64,000 nt of DNA from an uncultured Spirochaetota bacterium (lineage in GTDB: Bacteria; Spirochaetota; Spirochaetia; JAFGXN01). The translations under genes and the position numbers were made by a program. The DNA is taken from positions 17,160 to 81,159 of the forward strand of contig CALXKN010000008.1 of the NCBI GenBank assembly GCA_944388995.1. Direction: 5' to 3'. Shown piece by piece: positions 9,762 through 64,000 of the stretch. A model generated the notes under the pieces. The model did no database searches. It saw only the letters and a program-made list of their open reading frames with translations, and was not told where the DNA came from. Every line of letters begins with the position of its first letter. Positions within the stretch are counted from its first letter, which is position 1.

Positions 9762-10583
9762 TCAATTCACTTTTTCGGCTAAAACGGTTCGTTCGCGTTC
9801 ACTCAAATCGGGTTCTTCACCGGCCAGCAGCGCTTTGACCGCTTTTTTCTCTTTTTCCGACAATTTTACGCTTTTCAAAACGTGGTTACGGAACGCTTCG
9901 CATGCATATGGGCATACTTTTTCAGCAATCATCAGCAGAACTTCGGCATAACTTCGAATTTCTTTTTGCGCATGACCGTCGAGCCGCAATTTTAGAAAGT
10001 GAAACAGATTATGCAAATCGATTTGCCAATACCATTCCGTGTATAAACTGAGCGGCAGGTTGATTCGCGACAGTTCACGTGCAATGTTTTCGCCGATCAA
10101 CTTTTCGTAAGAATCGTAAGCGGCAGTTTGCTGATCAATTAAATTTTGCAGAACCGCTTCCCGAAGCACGGCAGGAACTTCTTCCTCCGAACGCCCTTGT
10201 TTATTATTCTGACTTTGAAACGCAATATCTTCGGCGGCCGGAACGTAAAACTCATTACGCATAACAGAATAACGGCCGGAAATTTCGTTCAGCCGCGCTG
10301 TTCGGTGACGAATCCATTGACGAGCAACAAAAATCGGCAGTTTGACGTGAAATGTGAAAACCACCTGTTCGAACGGAGAAGTGTGTTCGTTTCGCAGTAA
10401 ATAATTGATAAGCCCCTGATCTTCCCGAACTGTTTTCGTTCCGTCGCCGTAGGAAACGCGTGCCGACTGCACAATCCGCGAATCGCTTCCCATATAATCG
10501 ACCAAGCGAACAAATCCTTTATCCAAAACGGGAAACGCTTTGTCCAATACGGCTTCCGCTTCCGGAACGACACAATGCGCCAT
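9762..10583 (-). CDS. thyX: FAD-dependent thymidylate synthase
   Basis: ThyX motif RHRTARLNEISGRYS (RHRx7S). Length 273 aa. Confidence 0.85.
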   Translation of the reverse strand: MAHCVVPEAEAVLDKAFPVLDKGFVRLVDYMGSDSRIVQSARVSYGDGTKTVREDQGLINYLLRNEHTSPFEQVVFTFHVKLPIFVARQWIRHRTARLNEISGRYSVMRNEFYVPAAEDIAFQSQNNKQGRSEEEVPAVLREAVLQNLIDQQTAAYDSYEKLIGENIARELSRINLPLSLYTEWYWQIDLHNLFHFLKLRLDGHAQKEIRSYAEVLLMIAEKVCPYACEAFRNHVLKSVKLSEKEKKAVKALLAGEEPDLSERERTVLAEKVN

Positions 10584-10636
10584 AATCTTACCTCAATTTC
10601 GATTATAATATATTGAACGAAATTTGTCACGTCTTT

Positions 10637-11974
10637 TTAAAAAACAACCGAAACCGCCGGCGCTTCCGGCAAAGGCAGAGCGGCGGCTGGGTTTTCCGCC
10701 GCGCCGTTTTTTTGGACAATGACAACGGAACCGTCGGGCGCGTTTCCGTTGTCCGTATCGTAAGTCGAAAAATTGTACCGGTACAGATAATCCTGCATGG
10801 TGCGGCCGTCGGCGTAAGTATAAACGGCCTTTTCAGGATTTTTCAGTTCGCCGTCATAATAGGAAACGTCGTAGGCGTAGACAAATGTGCCGTCCGCACT
10901 GTAATACTCGCCGCGGACAATGGCAGATCCGTTGACGGCAAAAGTGTAGTAAAAAGTGATTTCTCCGGAGGAAGAGTAGTGGTTTTCCTTAATGGACCGC
11001 GGTGAGCCGCCGCTGTAATTGTAAATCCGTTCCTTTGAAAGAACAAAATACTGCGTCAGAAACTCATTGTCGGACAAACCGGCGCCGGTTTCGTTTTCCG
11101 TTCCCGGACGGCGGGTAAAGTATTCGATCCGTTCGATTTTACCGCTGCGGATGACGCGCCGCTCCGTTCCCTCCCACCGCGTGCGGTCGGGTTCGGTTTG
11201 GTTAAAATCTTTCGAATAATACTGATTGATGTTCAGATAGCGAACCTCCGAATCGGCATTCGCTGTTTCTTCTGTTACTGAGTAATAAAAATGGGCGCGG
11301 TAATGCGACGGCTGTGCTTTCGGATCGGTGTAAATTCCTTCATATCTCAAAAGTCCGTCGCTGTCGTAACCGTAAACGATTGTTTCGATATGCCGCTCTT
11401 CGGAGACGCCCGAAACGGAGGTGTAAAGATAATACGTATCTTCTTTTTTGTACAATCCGTCGTTGGTGTAACTGTAAACCGAATAATTTGAATCATCCGC
11501 CCAGCCTGCTTTGATTTGCTTCAGTTTTTGTGTGAACGTTGTCGGCCGCGACCATGTGACGAAGCGATTGCCGGTCGATTCATTGGAGACGGAAGCGCGC
11601 ACAAAATACGTTCCGGCACCTAAGCGATCCAAATACTGTGAATTGTAGGCAATAAACCAGCCGCCGTTTTGCGTAAAGGTTTCTGTCGTAATCAATCGAG
11701 AGGCGGAAAAAACGCCTTGATAGTTGTCGATATGATATGAAAAATCTTCGTTTTTAGAGAATTCCAGATAATAAACTGAATCGGAAATTGAAGTCCAAAC
11801 GAGGGCAGGATAGTAACACTCCCCGTAATCGGTTTTCGAAAAGACAACCGCATTGGTTCCGATCTCAACAGGAAAACCGACGTAATTTCCGCTTTTCGGA
11901 TCAACGGGATTTTCGAATGCAAAACAGGAAAAAAGAAAAAAAACCGACAATAAGACTAAAATTTTCTTTTTCAC
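10637..11974 (-). CDS. Tyr-rich lipoprotein, function unknown
   Basis: Signal peptide plus lipobox (LFSC). 445 aa. Overlaps the next gene by 4 nt. Confidence 0.5.
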   Translation of the reverse strand: MKKKILVLLSVFFLFSCFAFENPVDPKSGNYVGFPVEIGTNAVVFSKTDYGECYYPALVWTSISDSVYYLEFSKNEDFSYHIDNYQGVFSASRLITTETFTQNGGWFIAYNSQYLDRLGAGTYFVRASVSNESTGNRFVTWSRPTTFTQKLKQIKAGWADDSNYSVYSYTNDGLYKKEDTYYLYTSVSGVSEERHIETIVYGYDSDGLLRYEGIYTDPKAQPSHYRAHFYYSVTEETANADSEVRYLNINQYYSKDFNQTEPDRTRWEGTERRVIRSGKIERIEYFTRRPGTENETGAGLSDNEFLTQYFVLSKERIYNYSGGSPRSIKENHYSSSGEITFYYTFAVNGSAIVRGEYYSADGTFVYAYDVSYYDGELKNPEKAVYTYADGRTMQDYLYRYNFSTYDTDNGNAPDGSVVIVQKNGAAENPAAALPLPEAPAVSVVF

Positions 11975-41067: not shown

Positions 41068-43518
41068 ATGGAAGAAACGCAGCCGGGAAATATCATTCCC
41101 GTATCCATAGAAGATGAAGTCAAACAGTCTTATCTGAATTATGCCATGTCGGTTATCGTCAGCCGCGCGTTGCCGGACGTCCGCGACGGACTGAAACCGG
41201 TTCACCGCAGAATCTTATACGCGATGAATGAACTGGGACTGGCGTCAAATAAAGAAACCAAAAAATGCGCCCGCATTGTCGGTGAAGTTTTGGGTAAGTA
41301 CCATCCGCACGGCGATCAGTCGGTTTACGACGCGTTGGTCCGTATGGCGCAATGGTTTTCGCTGAAGTATCCTCTGATTTACGGCCAGGGCAATTTCGGA
41401 AACTTGGACGGCGATTCGGCCGCCGCCATGCGGTATACCGAAGCCAAAATGGAAAAGTACGCTGAATTGATGATGACAGACATCAATAAAGATACGGTTG
41501 ACTGGATGCCGAATTATGATGAATCGACGCAGGAACCGACCGTTCTTCCTTCAGCTTTTCCGAATTTGCTTGTCAACGGATCAAACGGAATTGCTGTCGG
41601 TATGGCGACGAATATGGCTCCGCATAATATCAACGAAGTCTGCGCTGCTGTTTCCGCCTATATCCGGAATCCCGATATTACCGTTGAAGAATTGATGCAG
41701 TATATAAAAGGCCCCGATTTTCCGACCGGCGGTCTTATTTACGGTACAGAAGGAATTAAAAAAGCGTACAGAACGGGTCGCGGAAAAGTTTTGATTCGGT
41801 CAAAGTGTTCGATTGAGACAATGAAATCCGGAAGGATGTGCATTGTTGTTACCGAAATTCCTTACATGGTCAACAAAAAGTCGTTGCTGGAACGGATTGC
41901 CGATTTGGTGAAAGACAAAAAAATCGAAGATATTTCCGCTCTGCGCGATGAATCTTCCGACAGGGTTGGCGTCCGGATCGTTATTGAGTTGAAAAAAGAC
42001 GCCAATGTCAAATTGGCGCTCAATAAACTTTATCTGCTTTCCGATCTCCAGAAAAGTTTCAGTATTATCAATTTGGCTTTGGTGAAAGGCCGTCCGGAAA
42101 CATTAAATTTAAAACAGCTGATTTTTCATTATGTTGAACACCGGAAAGAAGTGGTTACCCGCAGAACGGTTTTCGATTTGAATAAAGCCAAAGCCCGCTG
42201 TCATATTCTGGAAGGGTTAAAAATTGCGCTTGCCAATATCGATGAAATCATCGCCCTTATTAAAGCGTCAAAAACGGTTGATGAGGCAAGAAAGCGCTTG
42301 ATTGAACGTTTTGCCTTTTCCGAAATTCAAGCCAACGCCATCCTCGAAATGAGACTTCAGAAACTGACCAACCTGGAAACGGAAAAAATCCTGAACGAGT
42401 TGGCGGAAATCCTGAAAATGATTGCGTATTACGAAGACTTGCTGACACATGAAGATAAACTGATGGGGGTTGTACGGTCGGAAATCGAGCAAGTTTCCGA
42501 AGCAAATCAGTCAGACCGGCAAACCGAAATTCTGCTGCAGGAAGCGGAAGAAATCGACGCCGAAGACATGATTGCCGAAGAAAACGTGGTTGTTCTGATT
42601 TCAAACAAAGGTTTTATCAAACGGCAGCCCGTTTCATCATACCGGATTCAAAACCGCGGCGGCGCCGGTTCTTCTTCGACAAAATTTCATGTTGACGATT
42701 TTCTTGAACATCTTTTTATTGCCTCAACTCATGAGTACATCGTCTTTCTGACAAACGAAGGACGGGCTTATTATCTGAAAGTTCACGAAATTCCCGAAAG
42801 CAGCAAAGCGGCTAAAGGAACGCATATCAAACAGCTGCTTTCCATTACCGCAAACGAAGAGATTTCCGCTGTAGTAGCTTTAAAGGAATTTAATGAAACT
42901 TCGTTTTTATTTATGGCAACCGGATGCGGAAATGTTAAGCGTCTGGCTACATCAGAGCTGGAAAACGCCAAAACGCGCGGAAAAATCGTAATCCGTCTGC
43001 AGCAGGGCGACCGCCTTGTCAGCGTTATTCCGACAGACGGAAAACGGGAAATGTTTCTCGTTACAAGAAGGGGGCTTGCCCTCCATTTTAAAGAGGAAGA
43101 CGTCCGCGTTATGGGAAGAACCGCCTCCGGCGTGCGCGGAATCAGATTAACCAAAGGTGATGAAGTCGTTGCCGTTCTGTCTTTTAAGGAAAACGAACAG
43201 CTTTTTCTGATTTCCGAATTTGGATTTGCAAAGAGAACTAATCTTGAAAACAGCACTTCGCACTCGCGCGGATCGAAGGGAATCATTTACTATAAAGCCG
43301 GAGAAAAGACAGGCGAACTGGTCGGCGCTCTATGCGTTTCAGAAAAAGACGAATTGGTCTGCATTACCTCTCAAGGAATGACATTAAAATTGAAAGTTGA
43401 TCAAATCCCCGTATTGGGAAGATCTGCTTCAGGCGTGCGTGCGGTTCGCGTAAAAGAACCTGATTGTCTCGTCGGAGTGGCGCGCGTTGTTAACGAAGAT
43501 GCTCCGGATGAAAAATAA
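41068..43518 (+). CDS. gyrA: DNA gyrase subunit A
   Basis: Active-site Tyr region (AAMRYTEA) and C-terminal beta-pinwheel repeats. Confidence 0.95.
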
Positions 43519-55218: not shown

Positions 55219-55254
55219 GCCGCCATAGTAAAAGAAAGCCGCCGTCCTGTCAAC

Positions 55255-55421
55255 CTTTTCGTTTTTTGGGCGCGCGCCCCTGCGGGGCGCCGGGCTTTCC
55301 GCTGCAATTCGCAGCCTCCCTGCGCCTTCACCGCGGCAAAGCTGCCGCTTTGCCCTGCGCCTTCTCTCCGTCGGCAGCTCATTTCCGCTTCAATCCCTCG
55401 CGCCTTCGGCAAGGTGCTGCG
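55255..55421. repeat. GC-rich 166-bp direct repeat, copy 1
   Basis: Near-identical (1 indel) to 56426-56591. About 70% GC with internal hairpins (ggcaaagc-tgcc-gctttgcc; gggcgcgcgcccc…ggggcgcc). Confidence 0.9.
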
Positions 55422-55515
55422 GAAATCGGCATTTTATTGTTTTAGTGTAAAAATGGGAACTTCCGAAAACAGTCAACCGTTTTTCGGAAAAATAACTGCC
55501 CTAAACGTATTTTTG

Positions 55516-55616: not shown

Positions 55617-55922
55617 TTGGAGCGATCGGGTATGAGCTGTAATCTTCCTGAAAGCGTGGTTTTCGATATTGAACGATTCGCAAAGAAAAACAAGATTAAA
55701 AAGGTCGTTCTGTTTGGCTCCCGCGCGAGGGGCAATCATTCGGAACGAAGCGACATTGATTTGGCGGTCAGCGGTGGAAACGCGGCGGATTTTTATTACG
55801 ACGTCAATGAAGAAGCGCGGACTCTTTTAATTTTTGATGTGGTCAATCTGGACGGACCGGTCAGCGGCGAACTGCGCGCCGAAATAGAAAAGGACGGAGT
55901 TTTACTCTATGAAGAAATTTGA
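55617..55922 (+). CDS. Minimal nucleotidyltransferase (MNT) antitoxin-type protein
   Basis: GSRARG…SDIDL motif (Pol-beta NTase fold). Confidence 0.8.
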   Translation: MERSGMSCNLPESVVFDIERFAKKNKIKKVVLFGSRARGNHSERSDIDLAVSGGNAADFYYDVNEEARTLLIFDVVNLDGPVSGELRAEIEKDGVLLYEEI

Positions 55923-56304
55923 CAATTTTTGCAAAGCGCTTTCGAATTTGCGGGAAGGATTGCAGCTTGAAGAACCGTATTCTGTCGTCGAACGGACGGG
56001 CATCATCGGGCTGTTTGAAATTTGCTTTGAGCAGGCATGGAAGCTGATGAAAGCGGTTTTGGAAGAGCACGGCAGGACAATCGACCGCGTCGGTTCCCCG
56101 AAAGTTGTCATTCAGCTTGCATATCAGAGCGGGATGATTGACGACAGCGAAAAATGGCTTTCCCTGCTCAGAGATCGAAATATCCTTGCTCACACCTACA
56201 GCGACGAAGATTCGCTTGCCGTGATTCGAACGTTAAAGACGGACTACGAGCCCTTGTTCGCCACCCTCAAAGAAGAGATTGAAACGCGCCGGCTTTCGGC
56301 GTAA
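55909..56304 (+). CDS. HEPN-domain toxin-type protein (HI0074/nucleotidyltransferase-substrate-binding family)
   Basis: Rx4-6H motif (RDRNILAHTY). Overlaps the MNT gene by 14 nt. Confidence 0.75.
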   Translation: MKKFDNFCKALSNLREGLQLEEPYSVVERTGIIGLFEICFEQAWKLMKAVLEEHGRTIDRVGSPKVVIQLAYQSGMIDDSEKWLSLLRDRNILAHTYSDEDSLAVIRTLKTDYEPLFATLKEEIETRRLSA

Positions 56305-56425
56305 AGCGGAGGCGCGAAACAACTGAGTCCGGTATGAAAGTAGAAGAAATGGGAGCGAAAACTCTTTCAATCGCCACTGATTCTGCCAGCATCTTTACAT
56401 TTGGCTCCGCCCCCCCTCGCTGAAT

Positions 56426-56591
56426 CTTTTCGTTTTTTGGGCGCGCGCCCCTGCGGGGCGCCGGGCTTTCCGCTGCAATTCGCAGCCTCCCGCGCCTTCA
56501 CCGCGGCAAAGCTGCCGCTTTGCCCTGCGCCTTCTCTCCGTCGGCAGCTCATTTCCGCTTCAATCCCTCGCGCCTTCGGCAAGGTGCTGCG
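56426..56591. repeat. GC-rich 166-bp direct repeat, copy 2
   Basis: See copy 1. Preceded by a C7 tract (56410-56416). Confidence 0.9.
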
Positions 56592-56655
56592 AAAGAGGCG
56601 TCTGAAAACTATAAATATGAGAACAATCTCATTTAAACCTCATCCATTTTTATCT

Positions 56656-59541
56656 TCAGCAGAAATGCGCCATATCGCGCGGATAATACTTGCAGTCGTG
56701 CAGTTCCGTGTCGTCAAGCCCCAGCGCCTTTACCAGGGCAGCAGACGCTATGCACCAGTACCCGCGGTACTGGTTCTTTTTCAAGTCAAATTTTGTTATA
56801 AGCCCATCAGTCTTCGTGTGAATCCACTGTCTTTTAAGATACCGTTTTAACCGCTCAACAGCCGCCGCTTTATTCTCTTTTGAAAGCAGTACCACCTCAT
56901 ATACCGCATTGGAATATTTCGGACAGCAGAGCTTTTCCGTGCGTATCTGCCAGGATGAGTCCAGCGTCTGCATAAGGAAATCCAGATAAAAATCCCGCTG
57001 TTCCGATTTTTGTAACAATTTTCGATAGTCATCCAGAAATTCAGTCCTGTTAAAAAGCATAATCAAGTACAGAACAGTTTCCATATCTTCATAATTATCA
57101 TTGCCGTCCTGTGCGTCTATCAAATGACGCAAAATCAGGTCTACTTCGGGAAGCAGCTCATGCATATCTAGCCCTAAGGAATATCCTGTATAAAATTTGT
57201 AAAATGCATAAGTATATATTTGATATTTAAACGCTCTTATGTCCGATTCTGCCTGATGTTCATCAGTCTCAATATTATGATGATGATACGTTTGCAGTAT
57301 TTCTTTCAGCTTTTGGGAATCTTTCTTGAATCTTTCGTCAAAATATTCCTGGGGTTTGACTTTATCCCTCATCATTCTTACCCGGGGCGGAAGTTTTTCC
57401 CGCTCCTCCTCCGTAAGAAATTGCGACAGTTCAACTAAAAAGGGCTCTATAAACTCCGACATGAGTTTCGCTTTATTCCCGGCTGAGTGATCATAAGGTA
57501 TTTCAATTGCCGATGTCCGCCGTTTCTCATCCTTCCACAAGCGTCCTATTTTAATAAATGAACCGCCTTTCTCAAATATGTACAACGATATAATCAGTGT
57601 GCAGTCTTCATACTCACATTCTATATAATCTTGCTCCCCCAAGCAGTAATCTCTGTAGGTAAGATTCCTCAAAGTGGTTATTATCCAGGGTATCCACTCT
57701 TTTTTGATGACAACACTATCCCATGACTGCCATGACCCGGTACCGAAACGGCTGCCGGTTCTGGTGTTGATTCGTAGTTCGCCTTTGGGACTCCAGGGCG
57801 TGGGAAGTTTTTTCCGTTCTTCTTCAGGAAGAAATTGTGACAAGGCCACTAAGAAGGGTTCTATAAATTCCGACATGATTTTCAAGTCGTTGTCCGATTC
57901 TTCAAAATTAAATTCGAAACGGGTATAACGCCACTTTGATGTCAGGGTATAACTCTGCTCATTTTTTGCATGCCAAGGAAAATAAGGTATTTCAAGTGCC
58001 GGCGATATCTTCTTTTCATCCTTCCACATGGGAAATATTTTTATATAGGAATACCCATCCCCTATAGGACAGATACTTAATGTTAATTGGCACGTTCCCC
58101 ATTTATTTATGATGCTTTCAACTCCTGTTTGATAATTATCAACACTAAGATTTCTCAATGTGCTTATTATCCAGGGTATCCGGTTTTTTTGTATAACAAT
58201 ACTTTTCTGCTGCCCGCCGCCGAATGTACCGGTTCTTTTTCCGTTAATCCGTAATTCATCGTTATCTAATTCCTCGAAGCTGTATTCAAAATCGGCATTC
58301 AGAGTTTTTTTGCTTTGATATTTTGTTATCTTCTCTATTTTGGCTACTATCGATTCGTCGTCCGACTTATCGGTTTCGCCTGCATACCAATCTTTGCCTT
58401 CGAGCCATACCCCGAACCAGAAAGGAAGATCCCCCCAAGGTCTTTGACAGAGTTCTTTCTTTTCGTTGACACTCCAGGGGGGCGACAGTTTACCCCTTTC
58501 TTCTTCCGTGAGAAACTGCGACAATGCAACCAGAAACGGCTCTATAAATTCCGACATTAATTTTGTTTCTTTCCGGGATACATAGGGTATTTCAATATTC
58601 CATGAACTCTTATTTTCATTTTTCCAGACAGGATAAATTTTGATATAGGAATAATCAAAGGGTACTACATTTATAATAAAACTTAAATTACAGTAACCGT
58701 ATTCATATACGAGAGTTTGCGGGGTGTTATAATCGTCGATAGTGGCATTTCTTAGTGTGGTAATGATCAAAGGTATCCACGCTTTTTTTATGATAATACT
58801 TTCCCATTGTCCCCTGCCGAATGAATCTGTTCGCTTTGCATTGATTTCCAACTCGTCATCATTTAATTCTTCATTGTCAGCTTTTTCCTCAAAATAAAAT
58901 TCGAAATGAACATTCCCGCCCTTACTGATCAGGTATTCTTTTTCTGCCAGTCCGTATTGTGTTATACCGGTCATTGCTTTGAAAAAATTGAGGGAACCGC
59001 TTTCCTTATCGGCAAAAATGATGTTCTGTTTTTTGTTTTCCCTCCAGGGAGGCGGAAGTTGTGTTCTTTCTTCTTCGGTAAGGAATTGTGCCAATTCAAC
59101 CAAAACAGGTTCGATAAATTCCGCCATTAACCTGCTTTTATCCCAGGGTAGATATGGTATTTCAATAAACGGTGTCGTTTTTTCCTTCGGTTCCTTCCAT
59201 ATGGGCATTATTTGAAGGGTCGCATAATCTTTGGCAGATGGTAAAAACTCCAGATTGACTTGACATTCTTCATATTCGTGAACGATATGTCTGTTCCAAA
59301 TCCCTTCCGGAAAGTTGATGTCGTAATCCTCAAAAGGAAGGGTTCTCAGTGTGGTGATAATCCGGGAAATCCACGCTTTTTTTATGACGATACAGTAATA
59401 CAAAGGCATACGTTCCGCTTCATCCAACAATGGAAAGGTTATTTTTTCGAAAATCCGTATTTCGTCGTTGTCCGATTCCTCAAAATGAAATTCAAAGGTA
59501 TCGGATATTTCGGCATCTCCCCTTCTGCCTGTAATGAACAT
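56656..59541 (-). CDS. Novel 961-aa protein: four tandem ~180-aa repeats plus C-terminal ~210-aa domain (paralogue of the next gene)
   Basis: Repeat hallmarks FEFxFEESDNDELRI…KRTxxFGxGxWxSxxIKKxWIPxIITTLRN…YIKIxPxWKxE…IEIPY…SEFIEPFLVxLSQFLTEEERxKLPPPW occur four times. The C-terminus is about 65% identical to the 59781-60401 product. Confidence 0.7.
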   Translation of the reverse strand: MFITGRRGDAEISDTFEFHFEESDNDEIRIFEKITFPLLDEAERMPLYYCIVIKKAWISRIITTLRTLPFEDYDINFPEGIWNRHIVHEYEECQVNLEFLPSAKDYATLQIMPIWKEPKEKTTPFIEIPYLPWDKSRLMAEFIEPVLVELAQFLTEEERTQLPPPWRENKKQNIIFADKESGSLNFFKAMTGITQYGLAEKEYLISKGGNVHFEFYFEEKADNEELNDDELEINAKRTDSFGRGQWESIIIKKAWIPLIITTLRNATIDDYNTPQTLVYEYGYCNLSFIINVVPFDYSYIKIYPVWKNENKSSWNIEIPYVSRKETKLMSEFIEPFLVALSQFLTEEERGKLSPPWSVNEKKELCQRPWGDLPFWFGVWLEGKDWYAGETDKSDDESIVAKIEKITKYQSKKTLNADFEYSFEELDNDELRINGKRTGTFGGGQQKSIVIQKNRIPWIISTLRNLSVDNYQTGVESIINKWGTCQLTLSICPIGDGYSYIKIFPMWKDEKKISPALEIPYFPWHAKNEQSYTLTSKWRYTRFEFNFEESDNDLKIMSEFIEPFLVALSQFLPEEERKKLPTPWSPKGELRINTRTGSRFGTGSWQSWDSVVIKKEWIPWIITTLRNLTYRDYCLGEQDYIECEYEDCTLIISLYIFEKGGSFIKIGRLWKDEKRRTSAIEIPYDHSAGNKAKLMSEFIEPFLVELSQFLTEEEREKLPPRVRMMRDKVKPQEYFDERFKKDSQKLKEILQTYHHHNIETDEHQAESDIRAFKYQIYTYAFYKFYTGYSLGLDMHELLPEVDLILRHLIDAQDGNDNYEDMETVLYLIMLFNRTEFLDDYRKLLQKSEQRDFYLDFLMQTLDSSWQIRTEKLCCPKYSNAVYEVVLLSKENKAAAVERLKRYLKRQWIHTKTDGLITKFDLKKNQYRGYWCIASAALVKALGLDDTELHDCKYYPRDMAHFC

Positions 59542-59780
59542 TGCATCTACCAGTTTAAGAAAAGCTTTTGTATCAGCGGATTGGGCAGATTCTTCATGTT
59601 GATCGTCTTCTTTATTATATTTTATTCCGACTCCTAAGGAACGCAGCCGTCATATCGAAGGGGTGCAACGGTATGACGGCCAACACTCCGCTTTCACGCG
59701 GTGGTCTTATGCTGTTCATGTCGATACCGGACCGCTTCCGACACAACCGAATGAAGTTTTCCGATTTTCCGAATCAATTT

Positions 59781-60401
59781 CTAACAGAAATGGGTCATAT
59801 CGTAGGGATAGTATTTACAGTCTTTCAGTTCCGTATCGTCAAGTTTGAGGGCTTTTACCAAAGCGGCGGCGGCGATGCACCAATACCCCCGGTACCACCC
59901 TATTTTCAGATCCCGGTTGGTTATAACACCTTCGGTTAATGACATAAACCACTGCCTTTTAAGATACCTCTTTAACCGCTGGACGGCTTCCGCCTTGTTT
60001 TCTTTTGACAGCATTACCACCTCGTATACCGAATTGGTCTCTTTGGGGCAACGAAGTTTTTCCGTACTTATCTGCCATGTGGAGTCTACTATCTGTACAA
60101 GATAATCCAGGTAAAAATCCCGCATTTTCGATTTTTGTAATAACTCCTTATATTCATCCAGAAATTCTGTCCGGTTAAAAAGAATGATTAAGTATATAAT
60201 CATTTCCATATCATCATAACCTCTGTCCCTTTCTCTCGTTGTATCAATCAAATTTCTTATGATAAGGTCTACTTCGGGAAGCAGCTCATTCATACCAAGC
60301 CCCAGGGAATAGCCTGCATAAAATTTACAAGCTGCTTCCATATATATGTGATATTTAAACGACCATACATTATATTTTTCCGGATGGCTTATTCTCTTCA
60401 T
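59781..60401 (-). CDS. Stand-alone 206-aa paralogue of the C-terminal domain of the 961-aa protein
   Basis: YxGYSLGLxMxELLPEVDLIxRxLID…CKYYPxDMxHFC is shared with the 961-aa protein. Confidence 0.7.
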   Translation of the reverse strand: MKRISHPEKYNVWSFKYHIYMEAACKFYAGYSLGLGMNELLPEVDLIIRNLIDTTRERDRGYDDMEMIIYLIILFNRTEFLDEYKELLQKSKMRDFYLDYLVQIVDSTWQISTEKLRCPKETNSVYEVVMLSKENKAEAVQRLKRYLKRQWFMSLTEGVITNRDLKIGWYRGYWCIAAAALVKALKLDDTELKDCKYYPYDMTHFC

Positions 60402-60643
60402 ATTTACTCATCCGTTCAGCAAGATCAGACGCATCCTTATTATATCTTTCCCTAAAATATTCTTCTGTTTTTATGGTGTCTCTCATCTGTTATTCCTTGT
60501 GTATTTTGTAAATTTTTGGTTTATTCTCGTTATACATAACATTGCCATTTTCATCAAGTTGGTAATATGTTACTTTTCCTCCCTTCGGAACGCCTGCGGC
60601 GTGGCTACAATCCTTTGTGCGAGAAGATTTTTATCAATGGTGT

Positions 60644-60700
60644 CCGTACACACCCATTGATGTTGTCAAAGAACTCCTTCTGTACGGAGATAGGGGGAGG
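60644..60700. repeat. 57-bp exact repeat with 7-bp inverted repeat (CCGTACA…TGTACGG), copy 1
   Basis: Identical to 63943-64000. Starts 2 nt after the stop of the 75-aa gene. Confidence 0.9.
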
Positions 60701-60701
60701 G

Positions 60702-60929
60702 TTATTCAAAAGTTATTACCATATGCGAACCTGCCGTTTTTTCGGTTACTTTCTGTATAATCTCTTTTTTGTCATCTTCAGTTAATGGCTCGTTTTCTGG
60801 AACAAGCCAATTTTTCATTGAACTTTTATAACAGACAAAACCGCCTACTATCATTTCGCCTGCGATTCTCGCAGTTCTGCCATCGAGTTCTACATCTATG
60901 TATGTGTTTGTTCCGGTTATTTTTGTCAT
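60702..60929 (-). CDS. 75-aa hypothetical protein (partner of DUF600-like gene in duplicated module)
   Basis: MTKITGTNTYIDVELDGRTARIAGEMIVGGFVCYK…. A truncated second copy lies at 62300-62353. Confidence 0.5.
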   Translation of the reverse strand: MTKITGTNTYIDVELDGRTARIAGEMIVGGFVCYKSSMKNWLVPENEPLTEDDKKEIIQKVTEKTAGSHMVITFE

Positions 60930-60938
60930 ATATTAATC

Positions 60939-61271
60939 CTATGCATTATCCCATTCGTCTTGAAGAGCCTGATCCCATTCAAAGGTCATATCAAAGTGAC
61001 CGTTCTTTTCAAGGGTGTAAATAGCTTTGTTCCATTGTGCAAAATGTAACTCTTTTGCACTATTATGAAATTTTATTAAATCAATTTTTGTTTCTCGATT
61101 AAGTGCTAAGTTTAAAGCATTTTTCCATTCTCCATTAATCTGATATTTTGCATTCGTACCAATATATTTATCACTACATTCAATATTCAGTTCAATTTTA
61201 TCCCAAGAGGAATCAATACTATCATTCAATTGCGAACCAATATTTTTATATATATCTTCAATATTTTTCAT
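60939..61271 (-). CDS. DUF600 (YezG/EsaG)-like putative immunity protein, copy D
   Basis: N-terminus IEDIYKNI…SSWDKIEL and C-terminus WNKAIYTLEKNGHFDMTFEWD fit the DUF600 pattern (…EWEKVYLY…, W.NL.L..ER.G.F.IDYDY). AGGAG RBS overlaps the upstream nuclease-fragment stop. Confidence 0.5.
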   Translation of the reverse strand: MKNIEDIYKNIGSQLNDSIDSSWDKIELNIECSDKYIGTNAKYQINGEWKNALNLALNRETKIDLIKFHNSAKELHFAQWNKAIYTLEKNGHFDMTFEWDQALQDEWDNA

Positions 61272-61282
61272 AAATACTCCTA

Positions 61283-61657
61283 TTAATTTAAGAAGAACAA
61301 ATTTTCTGTTTTTTCTATTTTTCCATCCGATGTTTTTATAATGTATGTTACATCAAAATCTGTCGGTCTTAGATTATCAGCATAGTTTATTTTTATATCA
61401 ACTTCAACCTTTTTTCCCTCTGAAAGTGCATCGTTCCATTTTTTTTCCATGGTTTTCCATTCACCATTATTTAGTGTGGCGGTTTGTGGAACATAATTTA
61501 TTTGTTCTCCAGGACCATTGAAAATTCTTGCAATAATATGTCCGCCCTGGTCATCACCTTTAATACCATCTTTTATATCAACTGATTTTCCTTGTTGATA
61601 AACATTTCTGTCTTTTGTTTCAAGTTTTAATTCTCCGCTTACTTTGTTTTACAACTA
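61283..61657 (-). pseudogene. Orphan/pseudogenised nuclease toxin C-terminal domain (Serratia NucA-like bba-Me / Endonuclease_NS_2, EsaD/YeeF-type)
   Basis: Minus-strand frame encodes …GDDQGGHIIARIFNGPGEQINYVPQTATLNNGEWKTMEKKW… (compare Serratia DRGHQ…NITPQKSDLNQGAW). It has no start codon and in-frame TAG (61655-61657) and TAA (61649-61651). An upstream fragment (…DADYEDIVAALNRFGTIASKRK) in the same frame extends to 61731. Confidence 0.6.
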
Positions 61658-61731
61658 TTTTCTTTTACTTGCAATTGTTCCAAAACGATTAAGTGCAGCA
61701 ACAATATCTTCATAATCAGCATCTATTTCAT

Positions 61732-62262
61732 CTAACTGTCCCAGATTTCCTTAAATTTTAAACCTTTGATACTGTTTTTCTTAACAATATCTATAAACTC
61801 ATCTGTTACAAAATAATCTCGAATAATTAATTGATTTTGTAGTTTAACTTGAAAAAGAGGTGGATAATTGTTTTCCTTAAAATAATATTGCTCAACACCT
61901 AAAATATCATTCTCAAAATACTTATATTTAGTTTTTTTTCGATCTAAGCAGTCCAAAACAGTTAAATTATTTAATAGTACAAAATCGTCATTAAGCGGAA
62001 CAAATCTTATATTTATTTGAGAAATGTCAGAAAGTACTGCCATAAATTTTTTATTTATGAAGAATCCTCTACAATCATAACATTCACAAATATCCCCTGC
62101 AGGATTATTAGAATCTCTATCGTATTCTAATTGAAAATCAGAAGGAATGCTTATTTCTATACCTTTATTAAACTGACGTAAAATTTTTCTATCAGTTTCT
62201 TCGTTTTTTATATAGCATCCTTTGTAATTATCAATATCTGTTTCTAAAATGTATATTTTCAT
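61732..62262 (-). CDS. 176-aa hypothetical protein (AT-rich, possible immunity-type protein)
   Basis: ORF with a G8 tract serving as its RBS. No known motif. Confidence 0.45.
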   Translation of the reverse strand: MKIYILETDIDNYKGCYIKNEETDRKILRQFNKGIEISIPSDFQLEYDRDSNNPAGDICECYDCRGFFINKKFMAVLSDISQINIRFVPLNDDFVLLNNLTVLDCLDRKKTKYKYFENDILGVEQYYFKENNYPPLFQVKLQNQLIIRDYFVTDEFIDIVKKNSIKGLKFKEIWDS

Positions 62263-62299
62263 ATATCCCCCCCCTAATTGTGAATTTTTAAGAAACCAC

Positions 62300-62353
62300 T
62301 CAATAATTCCTTTCGGATTGTTTGTATGTGTTTGTTCCGGTTATTTTTGTCAT
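62300..62353 (-). pseudogene. Truncated remnant of 75-aa-family gene (MTKITGTNTY then divergent, stop after 17 codons)
   Basis: The first 10 codons and 5' flank are near-identical to the 60702-60929 gene, then homology breaks. Confidence 0.6.
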
Positions 62354-62362
62354 ATATTAATC

Positions 62363-62686
62363 CTATGCATTATCCCATTCGTCTTGGAGAGTTTGATCCC
62401 ATTCAAATGTCATATCAAAATGACCATTCCTTTCAAGAGAGTAAACAGCTTTGTTCCATTTATGCTCAGGCGACATAGATTCTTGAAGTTCAAAAACGCT
62501 ATCCATTAAAGTATTTACAGTTAATAAAGGAAACTTTAATTCTTTTTTTTCAAACGATGATAAAGTATATTCTGCCTGAAATGAACACATTTTATTTAGA
62601 CTTGATTCTATTTTTACAGTCACTTTTTCCCATTTACCGGAAATATTATCTTGAACCGCCTTGCCTAATTCTTTATATAAATCCAT
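62363..62686 (-). CDS. DUF600 (YezG/EsaG)-like putative immunity protein, copy B
   Basis: C-terminus WNKAVYSLERNGHFDMTFEWDQTLQDEWDNA is near-identical to copy D. Confidence 0.5.
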   Translation of the reverse strand: MDLYKELGKAVQDNISGKWEKVTVKIESSLNKMCSFQAEYTLSSFEKKELKFPLLTVNTLMDSVFELQESMSPEHKWNKAVYSLERNGHFDMTFEWDQTLQDEWDNA

Positions 62687-62732: not shown

Positions 62733-63842
62733 TTATTTCTCTTTATTTAAAATAAACAGATACTCAGAGACGTGTATATTACGGTTATTCAAATTTCTGC
62801 TTCCCCGGAATGTATTATAAGTCATTTCAACGGTTTTCAGTTTTCCGTAGTGTTCCAGCATTGTTTTCATTTGCTCAAAAGTAATAAATCCTTCAGAATT
62901 ATAAGAGATAATGACAAACTTTGAATCAATTTTATCTATGATTTTTTCCATGGATTTTAAGGCTGAATAAGGTTTGTTGAATTCCGAGCGGTTCCAATCC
63001 TGAGTTATCCCTGAAACTTTACTGATTTCAGCATCCAGCCTGTTCTTTATGATAAGATTCAGCATAAAATAATTTGAACCATAGGGATGCTGGTTATACG
63101 GGGGATCCAGATAAGTAATATCTATTTTTTTTAATTCCCCGGCAAGTTCCACAGCATCTTTTTTATAGATTTTAACCTTTGAATTGAAATTGCTTAAAAC
63201 CGGCTCTTTCAGTTCTATTTTTCCAAAAATGCGGGTTAAAGCGTTTTTCCCGGCAGCGCCGAAACATCCGATTCCGGTATTTTTGTCCTTGTAAAACCCT
63301 TTGAAAACCCCGCTTGTATTGACATGAACCGAAGCCTCCGTTACGAGCGGCGCTAAAAAAAATTTTTTCATGTCTTCTTCCTGCACCACTTTATCAATCA
63401 GACTGCGGTAAGTGTCGATTAACAGAGCGTTCTCATGGGTATAAAAAACCCTTTCTCCTCTTTGAATATTTCCGTCATCCTGAGGGGCATAATTTTTTGT
63501 GATAATTCTCGGTTCTTTTTTGCTGCGGCACATTTCTTCTATTATTGATTTATATTCCCGCCATTTTTCATGCGGAAAATCTTTTTTGTCAGTCAGATAG
63601 CATTCATTGATGAGGCGGGAATATTCTTCCAGATCATTGGCAATTAAAACACTGCTGTATTTTTTCAGCATCCGGGCAACAATTCCCGAACCGGAGAAAA
63701 TATCCGCACAAACAAGTTTTTCTTTTCCCAATAAACCGGCAATTTTTTTGACTTCTTCTTCTATATTCCTGATAAGCTGCCGTTTGTTCCTGATATAAGT
63801 AATGATCTGTGCAGTAAGATATTCTTTATTTTCTTCTTTCAT
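62733..63842 (-). CDS. DNA N6-adenine methyltransferase, D12 class (Dam-like, alpha type)
   Basis: Motif I DIFSGSG and motif IV DPPY in alpha-class order. 369 aa. Confidence 0.7.
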   Translation of the reverse strand: MKEENKEYLTAQIITYIRNKRQLIRNIEEEVKKIAGLLGKEKLVCADIFSGSGIVARMLKKYSSVLIANDLEEYSRLINECYLTDKKDFPHEKWREYKSIIEEMCRSKKEPRIITKNYAPQDDGNIQRGERVFYTHENALLIDTYRSLIDKVVQEEDMKKFFLAPLVTEASVHVNTSGVFKGFYKDKNTGIGCFGAAGKNALTRIFGKIELKEPVLSNFNSKVKIYKKDAVELAGELKKIDITYLDPPYNQHPYGSNYFMLNLIIKNRLDAEISKVSGITQDWNRSEFNKPYSALKSMEKIIDKIDSKFVIISYNSEGFITFEQMKTMLEHYGKLKTVEMTYNTFRGSRNLNNRNIHVSEYLFILNKEK

Positions 63843-63942: not shown

Positions 63943-64000
63943 TCCGTACACACCCATTGATGTTGTCAAAGAACTCCTTCTGTACGGAGATAGGGGGAGG
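63943..64000. repeat. 57-bp exact repeat, copy 2 (runs into window end)
   Basis: Identical to 60644-60700. Confidence 0.9.

Follow-up and report, generated by a model that had tools for sequence, protein, structure and literature searches.

Two short DUF600-like immunity genes in a spirochaete polyimmunity island, and a variable cassette that spans the boundary with PF13930 nuclease genes

Introduction

Why would two immunity-like genes that are only distantly similar along most of their length end in a nearly identical block, and where are the toxins that they would neutralise? This question is raised by two paralogous genes, copy B and copy D, near one end of a 64,000-nucleotide (nt) stretch of an uncultured Spirochaetota genome (contig CALXKN010000008.1, positions 17,160 to 81,159), which is called the window below. 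B and D are very probably short immunity proteins of the DUF600 type directed against nucleases of the PF13930 family, left as orphans in a polyimmunity island of a gut spirochaete, and their specificity is probably exchanged by the swapping of a cassette that also contains the end of the nuclease gene. Contigs that were compared with the window are designated by L and a number, and individual proteins by P and a number.

Results and discussion

Copies B and D

The two genes lie on the same strand:

60939..61271, minus strand: copy D, a 110-residue (aa) short DUF600/YezG/EsaG-like (Imm36) immunity gene; intact open reading frame (ORF)
62363..62686, minus strand: copy B, a 107-aa short DUF600-like immunity gene without an upstream toxin remnant; intact ORF

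Both ORFs are present as an earlier sequence-only reading of this DNA had described them, and the C-terminal block that it reported, WNKA(I/V)Y(T/S)LE(K/R)NGHFDMTFEWDQxLQDEWDNA, is exact. D and B share 44% identity across 108 residues (BLASTP, E 2e-29), distributed very unevenly: 27 of the C-terminal 31 residues are identical, against roughly 24-27% of the N-terminal 76-79. A Shine-Dalgarno-like motif lies 5 nt ahead of each start codon, AGGAG in D and GGAG in B, and the exact D protein is present on 157 contigs. B and D are the only DUF600-like copies in the window, which also has one nuclease remnant, and no full-length toxin was found across its 64 kilobases (kb). Within the window itself, B and D are orphan immunity genes. 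A promoter and terminator scan of 60.4-64 kb returned counts equal to those of shuffled sequence and was hence uninformative, and Rfam and tRNA scans of 50-64 kb gave no match.

Family and fold

The assignment to DUF600, first made from the sequence alone, was borne out by the predicted fold and by the gene context discussed in the next section, and the profile searches gave a borderline match. Against the Pfam profile PF04634, which has a gathering score of 21.7 bits, B scores 23.4 bits and spans model positions 4-120 of 146, and D falls just short of the gathering score. A search for homologues recovered 75 sequences, nearly all of them metagenomic, with the few named ones belonging to Treponema; PF04634 is matched at E<0.01 (HMMER) by 43 of the 49 aligned family members.

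AlphaFold (AF2) models of both proteins were obtained with good confidence (predicted local distance difference test, pLDDT, 88.1 for D and 92.5 for B), and both models have the alpha+beta fold of BH3703. Foldseek places EsaG and BH3703 at the top for the D model (E 2e-7) and BH3703 and EsaG for the B model (E 4.5e-6 to 2.8e-5). For both models, EsaG (8guo, 8gup) and BH3703 (2ia1, 3i0t) are the sole matches at E<=3e-5, the next match having E>=1.5e-2, so that the structural comparison proposed by the sequence-only reading came out in its favour. Template modelling (TM) scores to EsaG and BH3703 are 0.62-0.76 when normalised by the query and 0.42-0.53 when normalised by the target. The tryptophans W23 and W80 (D numbering) are invariant in all 49 sequences, and their counterparts in EsaG and BH3703 are at the WEK and PW positions. 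The signature given for Imm36, which is DUF600, by Zhang et al. 2012 (PMC3482391) is 'W, W', and this signature is matched by the two invariant tryptophans.

Members of the family are 107-111 aa long, compared with about 150-180 aa for canonical DUF600 proteins, and do not have the full-length architecture. Of EsaG and BH3703, to which they are 14-18% identical, they cover only the N-terminal 115-120 residues or so. Taken with the predicted structures, this supports the classification of B and D as a short variant of the DUF600/YezG/EsaG (Imm36) fold that forms a compact subfamily.

The partner nuclease

The gene immediately preceding D is a damaged nuclease gene:

61283..61648, minus strand: 5'-truncated PF13930 (Endonuclea_NS_2, YeeF/EsaD-type) nuclease remnant, with the GGH catalytic region and a tail of type T1 retained (from its translation)

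D starts 11 nt past the stop codon of this remnant, in agreement with the earlier statement that D directly follows a nuclease fragment. The first ~20 residues of the domain are gone and stop codons lie upstream; the only ATG-initiated ORF in the remnant has 55 aa (61283-61450) and scores 27.7 bits against PF13930. The remnant is 96-97% identical to the PF13930 proteins P0076-P0081 and 76% identical to P0343, a 606-aa toxin. Relatives of the P0076-P0081 type are the closest, and have 137-212 aa with an N-terminal junction that differs between contigs. The repeat unit of a 961-aa protein that is also encoded in the window is found fused to such nuclease fragments in other contigs (P0081; L015 12371-12718), and another short nuclease is fused to the N-terminus of a resolvase. 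The possibility that the short nucleases are complete stand-alone toxins was rejected, given these varied junctions or a start at an internal methionine of toxins of 445-606 aa.

An exhaustive HMMER search showed that a nuclease 82-90% identical to the remnant forms the C-terminus of proteins of 316, 445 and 606 aa. Full-length toxins that carry the PF13930 nuclease include a 605-aa protein in L003, the 606-aa P0343 (tail T3) and the 445-aa P0342 (tail T4). L003 is from a rumen Treponema metagenome-assembled genome (MAG), and there the 605-aa toxin (90-1922) lies directly upstream of a D-like gene. The full-length toxins show two different N-terminal regions, one of which has a hydrophobic, membrane-like segment, …LWNSIPMILFIAALIISCGEIASAILILMSL….

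A DUF600-like gene directly follows a PF13930 nuclease in L001, L003, L004, L012, L015-19, L020 and L029-33. Immediate adjacency downstream of a Tox-NucA/PF13930 gene is found for D in the window, and for B-type genes only elsewhere, in L015 and L012. The nuclease that precedes the B-type gene in both of those loci has a T3 tail, the same tail that is found on the 606-aa toxin P0343, and there is no nuclease remnant upstream of B in the window. These arrangements support the earlier suggestion that B has lost its cognate toxin here.

A cassette of toxin tail and immunity N-terminus

The nuclease is conserved and variable in separate parts. Its core, 116 aa ending in ...KKVEVDI, is 84-99% identical between variants, and its last 32-36 residues are 36-56% identical between types, of which there are at least four. 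Tail types are shared by different core lineages: for T3, the cores are 85% identical and the tails 91% identical, and for T4 the corresponding values are 84% and 97%.

Each tail type is followed by one N-terminal type of immunity protein. The T1 tail is followed by a D type, L003 containing a diverged T1/D pair, and D always comes after a T1 nuclease tail. The T2 tail precedes an immunity type marked by 'STNAYYF' in L004, and the T3 tail precedes the B type in L015; diverged T2 and T3 pairs are present in L007 and L012, respectively. The T4 tail precedes the G08 type in L020.

A comparison of the window with L004 delimits the variable part:

61037..61394, minus strand: variable cassette comprising the last ~36 nuclease codons, the stop codon, the 11-nt spacer and the first 78 D codons (window compared with L004)

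On the nuclease side, the core arm at 61395-61545 is 96.7% identical over 151 nt (blastn), and on the other side the immunity 3' arm at 60903-61036 is 96.3% identical over 134 nt. The 355-358 nt between these arms cannot be aligned, and the variable determinants of toxin and immunity protein therefore constitute one contiguous cassette. The nuclease tail and the N-terminal ~78 residues of the immunity protein vary together, as a cassette of ~355 nt between conserved arms.

The shared block and the direct repeat

At the DNA level, the C-terminal block that B and D have in common is part of a longer direct repeat:

60899..61036, minus strand: direct repeat copy 1, made up of ~98 nt from the 3' end of D, a 9-nt spacer and the initial 31 nt of Imm74 (repeat search, DNA alignment, blastn)
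62323..62460, minus strand: direct repeat copy 2, made up of ~98 nt from the 3' end of B, a 9-nt spacer and a stub with 31 nt of the Imm74 start (repeat search, DNA alignment)

The two copies are 138 nt long and 92.8% identical (blastn), with 10 mismatches and with the last 64 nt identical. The Imm74 stub after B (62323-62353) reads MTKITGTNTY before passing into unrelated sequence, and intact B-Imm74 adjacency is found in L015 and L028.

Two simple accounts of the block were considered, and each is only partly true. It is not the product of recent duplication or gene conversion alone, as the protein is conserved despite saturated synonymous sites: between the local set and distant Treponema MAG genes, the block retains 84% amino acid identity at a 4-fold site difference of 0.70. 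Nor is it the product of protein constraint alone, as the identity in the window extends past the stop codon, across the spacer and 31 nt into the gene that follows. In the local gene pool, the block is 94% identical at the nucleotide level, with a 4-fold difference of 0.26 compared with 0.51 in the N region, and alleles with identical N regions bear different C-block DNA. Two processes are superimposed: the block is under protein-level constraint family-wide and is homogenised as DNA locally.

Across the loci, the homology breaks off 27, 31, 38 or 75 nt into Imm74, with different sequences beyond. Varied sequence past a common junction of this kind suggests recombination tracts that are anchored on one side by the conserved block. 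Such a process is known: in S. aureus, recombination between esaG paralogues has been described, with homology blocks spanning the gene end and the downstream spacer (PMC9484751).

Proposed mode of action

The mode of action suggested for B and D is taken by homology from the EsaG-EsaD pair, and what is said below on binding geometry, specificity, protective role and the delivery route of the toxins is conditional. The immunity protein would bind an incoming nuclease domain in the cytoplasm and would insert between the N- and C-terminal nuclease halves, disordering the beta-beta-alpha-metal active site. In the known complex, EsaG residues Y11, L110, V112 and F114 and strand beta4' hold the N-terminal EsaD fragment, and alphaB and beta6-8 of the C-terminal EsaD fragment bind the other face; EsaD R606 and N607 touch EsaG 56-58 (PMC9616950). 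In a profile alignment, EsaG Y11 corresponds to the invariant Y8 of the short family, and L110/V112/F114 correspond to F93/M95/F97 of the HFDMTF strand.

By analogy, the near-invariant C-terminal block (strands 82-88 and 93-98 plus the helix) may provide an edge strand and a hydrophobic core by which the N-terminal half of the nuclease, itself conserved, is held. The ~78 N-terminal residues of the immunity protein, which are hypervariable, would lie opposite the polymorphic nuclease tail of ~35 residues and determine the specificity. The layout of the cassette fits the EsaD-EsaG structure when the two are compared in this way. Homologous recombination would then swap a toxin tail together with the matching immunity specificity. 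D would be the partner of tail T1, its toxin having decayed to a remnant without a start codon, and B would be the partner of tail T3, its toxin having been lost altogether.

Several points weigh against the reading of B and D as DUF600 immunities with cassette-swapped specificity. The profile search recommended by the sequence-only reading succeeded for B and narrowly failed for D, which scores 20.8 bits against PF04634, just under the cut-off of 21.7. When the family profile is compared with the PDB, BH3703 and EsaG come first, weakly (E 0.09-0.3). B and D are without the C-terminal ~45-60 residues of EsaG and BH3703; EsaG E143, which was used for cross-linking, is in a region near the interface with the C-terminal nuclease fragment (PMC9616950), and the binding geometry may therefore differ in the short proteins. 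The N-terminal regions of the toxins (L003, P0342, P0343) have no Pfam match besides the nuclease. The co-variation of tail and immunity types is based on few independent loci, roughly two for each type. Finally, L020 shows a 212-aa nuclease ORF that looks intact, and the same ORF may adjoin the end of the window.

The surrounding island

On the minus strand, the order of genes from 5' to 3' is a D12 methyltransferase, B, the Imm74 stub, an Imm11-like gene, the nuclease remnant, D, Imm74, PoNi206 and the 961-aa protein. The features not yet described are as follows:

62733..63842, minus strand: D12-class N6-adenine DNA methyltransferase, directly upstream of B (PF02086, 65.3 bits)
61732..62262, minus strand: Imm11-like gene, 176 aa, flanked by the Imm74 stub and the nuclease remnant (PF07791, 19.8 bits, short of the cut-off of 22.1)
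60702..60929, minus strand: Imm74 immunity gene, 75 aa, directly after D (PF15603, 57.6 bits)
60643..60700, minus strand: 58-nt sequence directly downstream of Imm74, with an exact repeat at 63943-64000 that is the tail of a second Imm74 copy past the window end
59781..60401, minus strand: PoNi206, with PoNi_C only (PF08929/PF08928 search)
56656..59541, minus strand: 961-aa ORF with four internal repeats of ~190 aa followed by PoNi_N and PoNi_C (PF08929, PF08928, internal repeats)

Imm74, two DUF600-like genes, an Imm11-like gene and two PoNi genes are present within 56.6-62.7 kb, which is the composition of a heterogeneous polyimmunity locus. The tandem paralogue array that the sequence-only reading expected for DUF600 genes is not what is found, as B and D are interleaved with unrelated immunity genes. 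A relative of the Imm11-like gene in L008 scores 23.0 bits, and a 99.4% identical copy is found in L004.

PF08929 and PF08928 matches occur in the part of the island at 56656..60401. Just upstream of PoNi206, in another frame, a PoNi_N-like stretch at 60391-60486 suggests a frameshifted or split gene. The 961-aa ORF is a candidate polyimmunity protein, and its repeat unit matches a region of L004 just downstream of a 264-aa ORF (10340-11134).

B starts 46 nt past the end of the methyltransferase gene (62733-63842). Every contig that carries the D12 methyltransferase has it within the immunity island, with an Imm74 copy on one side and B on the other, and it has no visible restriction partner.

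The contigs recovered with the exact B protein are all short, and the sequence past position 64000 is known only through contigs L020-L027, which carry the exact methyltransferase; there it contains the second Imm74, a 180-aa gene, a chimeric ORF and the 212-aa nuclease ORF, which begins at an internal methionine of the longer toxins. The chimeric ORF (L020 6316-6744, 142 aa) directly follows this PF13930 nuclease ORF; its first 42 residues are identical to a G08-type DUF600-like N-terminus and are fused to a C-terminal fragment of an AHH nuclease, so that here the arrival of a toxin/immunity cassette has interrupted an immunity gene.

The 58-nt repeat contains an 8-nt inverted repeat, and an integron-like cassette array was considered on account of this and of the ~175-nt repeats around the MNT/HepT pair described below. 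For the 58-nt repeat this was ruled out by L020, in which the repeat is the sequence downstream of a second, 93% identical Imm74 gene located upstream of the methyltransferase (a 311-nt repeat at 93% identity); the 58-nt repeat is absent from the other 19 loci compared. Neither the genes at 47-64 kb nor the next 7.5 kb, as represented in L020, include a recombinase. With no recombinase in the parts examined, and with repeats that are gene-internal homology blocks and not a common intergenic element, the locus does not have the make-up of a recombinase-associated acquired interbacterial defence (rAID) island of Bacteroidales, in which a conserved tyrosine recombinase heads the array and intergenic elements recur between the cassettes.

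Further from B and D, GC-rich direct repeats of ~175 nt at 55252-55424 and 56423-56594, 98-99% identical, bracket an MNT/HepT pair (55617-56304, plus strand). These repeats have two copies only in the window and no Rfam or tRNA match, and the arrangement suggests either an insertion that duplicated its flank or a mobile toxin-antitoxin cassette.

Host, assembly and sharing between phyla

The host can be assigned from housekeeping genes in the window:

39-43.5 kb: GyrB and GyrA (GyrA 41068-43518); the closest named GyrA proteins are from Spirochaetota (Treponema, Leadbettera), at 58-62% identity

The spirochaetal GyrA indicates a diderm spirochaete host, to which the type VII context of EsaD and YeeF is not applicable. 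That context comprises a toxin with an LXG/WXG-type N-terminus and a host with a type VIIb secretion system, whereas this genome belongs to Spirochaetota, and the toxins have no Pfam domain besides the nuclease. Delivery by an LXG/type VII route was considered and is without Pfam support in the toxin N-terminal regions. The partnership with EsaD/YeeF proposed by the sequence-only reading thus holds for the PF13930 nuclease and does not extend to type VII secretion.

The module that comprises the nuclease remnant, D and Imm74 (941 nt) recurs at 99.7% identity in other spirochaete contigs, with flanks of 46-48% GC, and at 98.1-98.2% identity in contigs with flanks of 32-36% GC, where it lies beside a flagellar operon. 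One contig of this flagellar-operon locus comes from a MAG labelled Mucispirillum, and the Imm11-like gene there is 99.4% identical. Module identity of 98% across Mucispirillum-labelled and spirochaete contigs indicates that the cassettes are shared across phyla.

The integrity of the assembly in this part of the window has to be considered. GC content falls from ~45% for the whole window to 28-30% at 61-63 kb, and the last 3.16 kb are 99.94% identical to L020, in which the housekeeping flank has 25-35% GC. It might therefore be supposed that ~60.7-64 kb (28-38% GC) is foreign to the spirochaete chromosome and was joined to it by the metagenome assembler through shared repeats, the more so as L035 and L036 end exactly in the 138-nt repeat. 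However, a break at an internal 138-nt repeat is expected even in a correct assembly. L022 and L023 are continuous from the methyltransferase through B, D and Imm74 to PoNi206, L035 and L036 are continuous from the Imm11-like gene through D into spirochaete chromosome, and Treponema MAG contigs (L008) show low-GC immunity islets within flanks of ~50% GC. Such a joining is unlikely. Each junction is bridged by independent contigs that come from several samples, and an island that is real and was acquired horizontally is more likely than a chimeric join.

The two spirochaete contigs just mentioned, L035 (212,580 bp; positions 1-90) and L036 (54,675 bp; positions 1-55), begin inside the repeat, at about window 62323-62410. 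Assemblers evidently break there, and this bears on the trust to be placed in the distal part of the window.

Toxin-antitoxin modules, relics and the preferred reading

A different function could be proposed for the same genes, namely that the nuclease/DUF600 pairs are intracellular toxin-antitoxin or addiction (abortive-infection-like) modules, with B and D serving as antitoxins to keep the island stable. The most closely related nuclease ORFs are indeed short (137-212 aa) and without a recognisable secretion domain, a bona fide toxin-antitoxin pair (MNT/HepT) is present in the same island, and the modules move between genomes. However, the short ORFs are truncated nucleases whose 5' junctions are of many kinds (the PoNi-repeat fusion, the resolvase N-terminus, stop codons, an internal methionine), and the 82-90% identical nuclease at the end of 445-606-aa proteins with conserved N-terminal regions is a polymorphic-toxin architecture. 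The neighbouring families Imm74, Imm11, PoNi and SUKH are, moreover, classical polymorphic-toxin immunity families, and a role as antitoxins is rather improbable. That B and D are non-functional relics of a decaying island, with the shared block as a recent duplication scar, is very improbable: D's toxin is a remnant, a 31-nt gene stub follows B and the island is rich in chimeric and truncated ORFs, but both ORFs are intact and have ribosome-binding motifs, the exact D protein recurs on many contigs, the amino acid conservation of the block despite saturated 4-fold sites reflects purifying selection at the protein level, and orphan DUF600 copies are the rule in S. aureus (PMC9484751).

The reading of B and D as orphan immunities against PF13930 nucleases can be extended, and the extension is offered tentatively, as a possibility somewhat short of an even chance. 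The system may be built for the swapping of matched pairs at sub-domain scale. On the toxin side, polymorphism would be restricted to the ~35 C-terminal nuclease residues, and on the immunity side, specificity would reside in the ~78 N-terminal residues of a minimal DUF600 protein. The downstream arm, consisting of the invariant 3' block, the 9-nt spacer and the first ~9 codons of the following gene, would double as a one-sided homology anchor by which new immunity cassettes are joined in, as the four different breakpoints within Imm74 suggest. The cassettes would pass between Mucispirillum-like bacteria and spirochaetes in the gut, and the island would serve in a defence resembling acquired interbacterial defence (AID). 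If so, this would be an AID-like defence in spirochaetes, a type of defence so far not described outside Bacteroidales.

Comparison with known systems

The closest known systems are EsaG/EsaD of Staphylococcus aureus and YezG/YeeF of Bacillus subtilis, with which the genes described here share the fold, at TM scores of 0.69-0.76 on the query, the PF13930 partner and the position of the immunity gene directly after the nuclease. The EsaG residues that grip the N-terminal nuclease fragment align to family-invariant positions. As in the S. aureus esaG genes, orphan paralogues recombine via conserved blocks, and one such block covers the gene end together with the downstream spacer (PMC9484751). 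Unlike EsaG and YezG, the B/D family has only 107-111 aa and is without the C-terminal third, and it is 14-18% identical to EsaG and BH3703. The host is a diderm spirochaete, the toxins have no LXG/type VII-type N-terminus detectable by Pfam, and B and D are interleaved with unrelated immunity genes, in place of a long homogeneous tandem array.

Imm36 (DUF600, BH3703-like) has been catalogued with Tox-NucA in homogeneous and heterogeneous polyimmunity loci, spirochaetes included (Zhang et al. 2012, PMC3482391). The island in the window, which combines Imm36, Imm74, Imm11-like and PoNi genes, resembles the heterogeneous loci of that catalogue, which is without the short subfamily, the sub-domain cassette and the 3' block that reaches into the next gene. 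The AID and orphan immunity islands of Bacteroidales (Ross et al., bioRxiv 10.1101/471110; PMC12247911) are also similar, in that the island described here is likewise an immunity array without cognate intact toxins, differs in composition from the host chromosome and contains modules that are 98-100% identical at the nucleotide level between co-resident organisms of different phyla. However, the hosts here are a spirochaete and Mucispirillum-like bacteria, and no recombinase was seen beside the island in the parts examined. For the toxins described here, a role as type VI secretion effectors would be hypothetical, as would protection by B and D.

The locus is thus of an ordinary kind, already catalogued in 2012, and the present analysis refines a known system and does not describe a new kind of system. 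What is new is the compact DUF600-fold subfamily, the combination of toxin tail and presumed immunity specificity in one recombination cassette and the occurrence of near-identical cassettes in two phyla. EsaG/YezG-type nuclease immunity is extended to a compact 107-111-aa form in diderm gut bacteria, and the locus is a clear example of toxin and immunity determinants exchanged as one cassette, with immunity genes shared across phyla in one gut community. With four tails on the toxin side and four N-terminal types on the immunity side, set on scaffolds that are otherwise nearly identical, the family represents a small natural specificity-mapping system, which could be used to test which parts of a 'toxin-deforming' immunity protein set its specificity.

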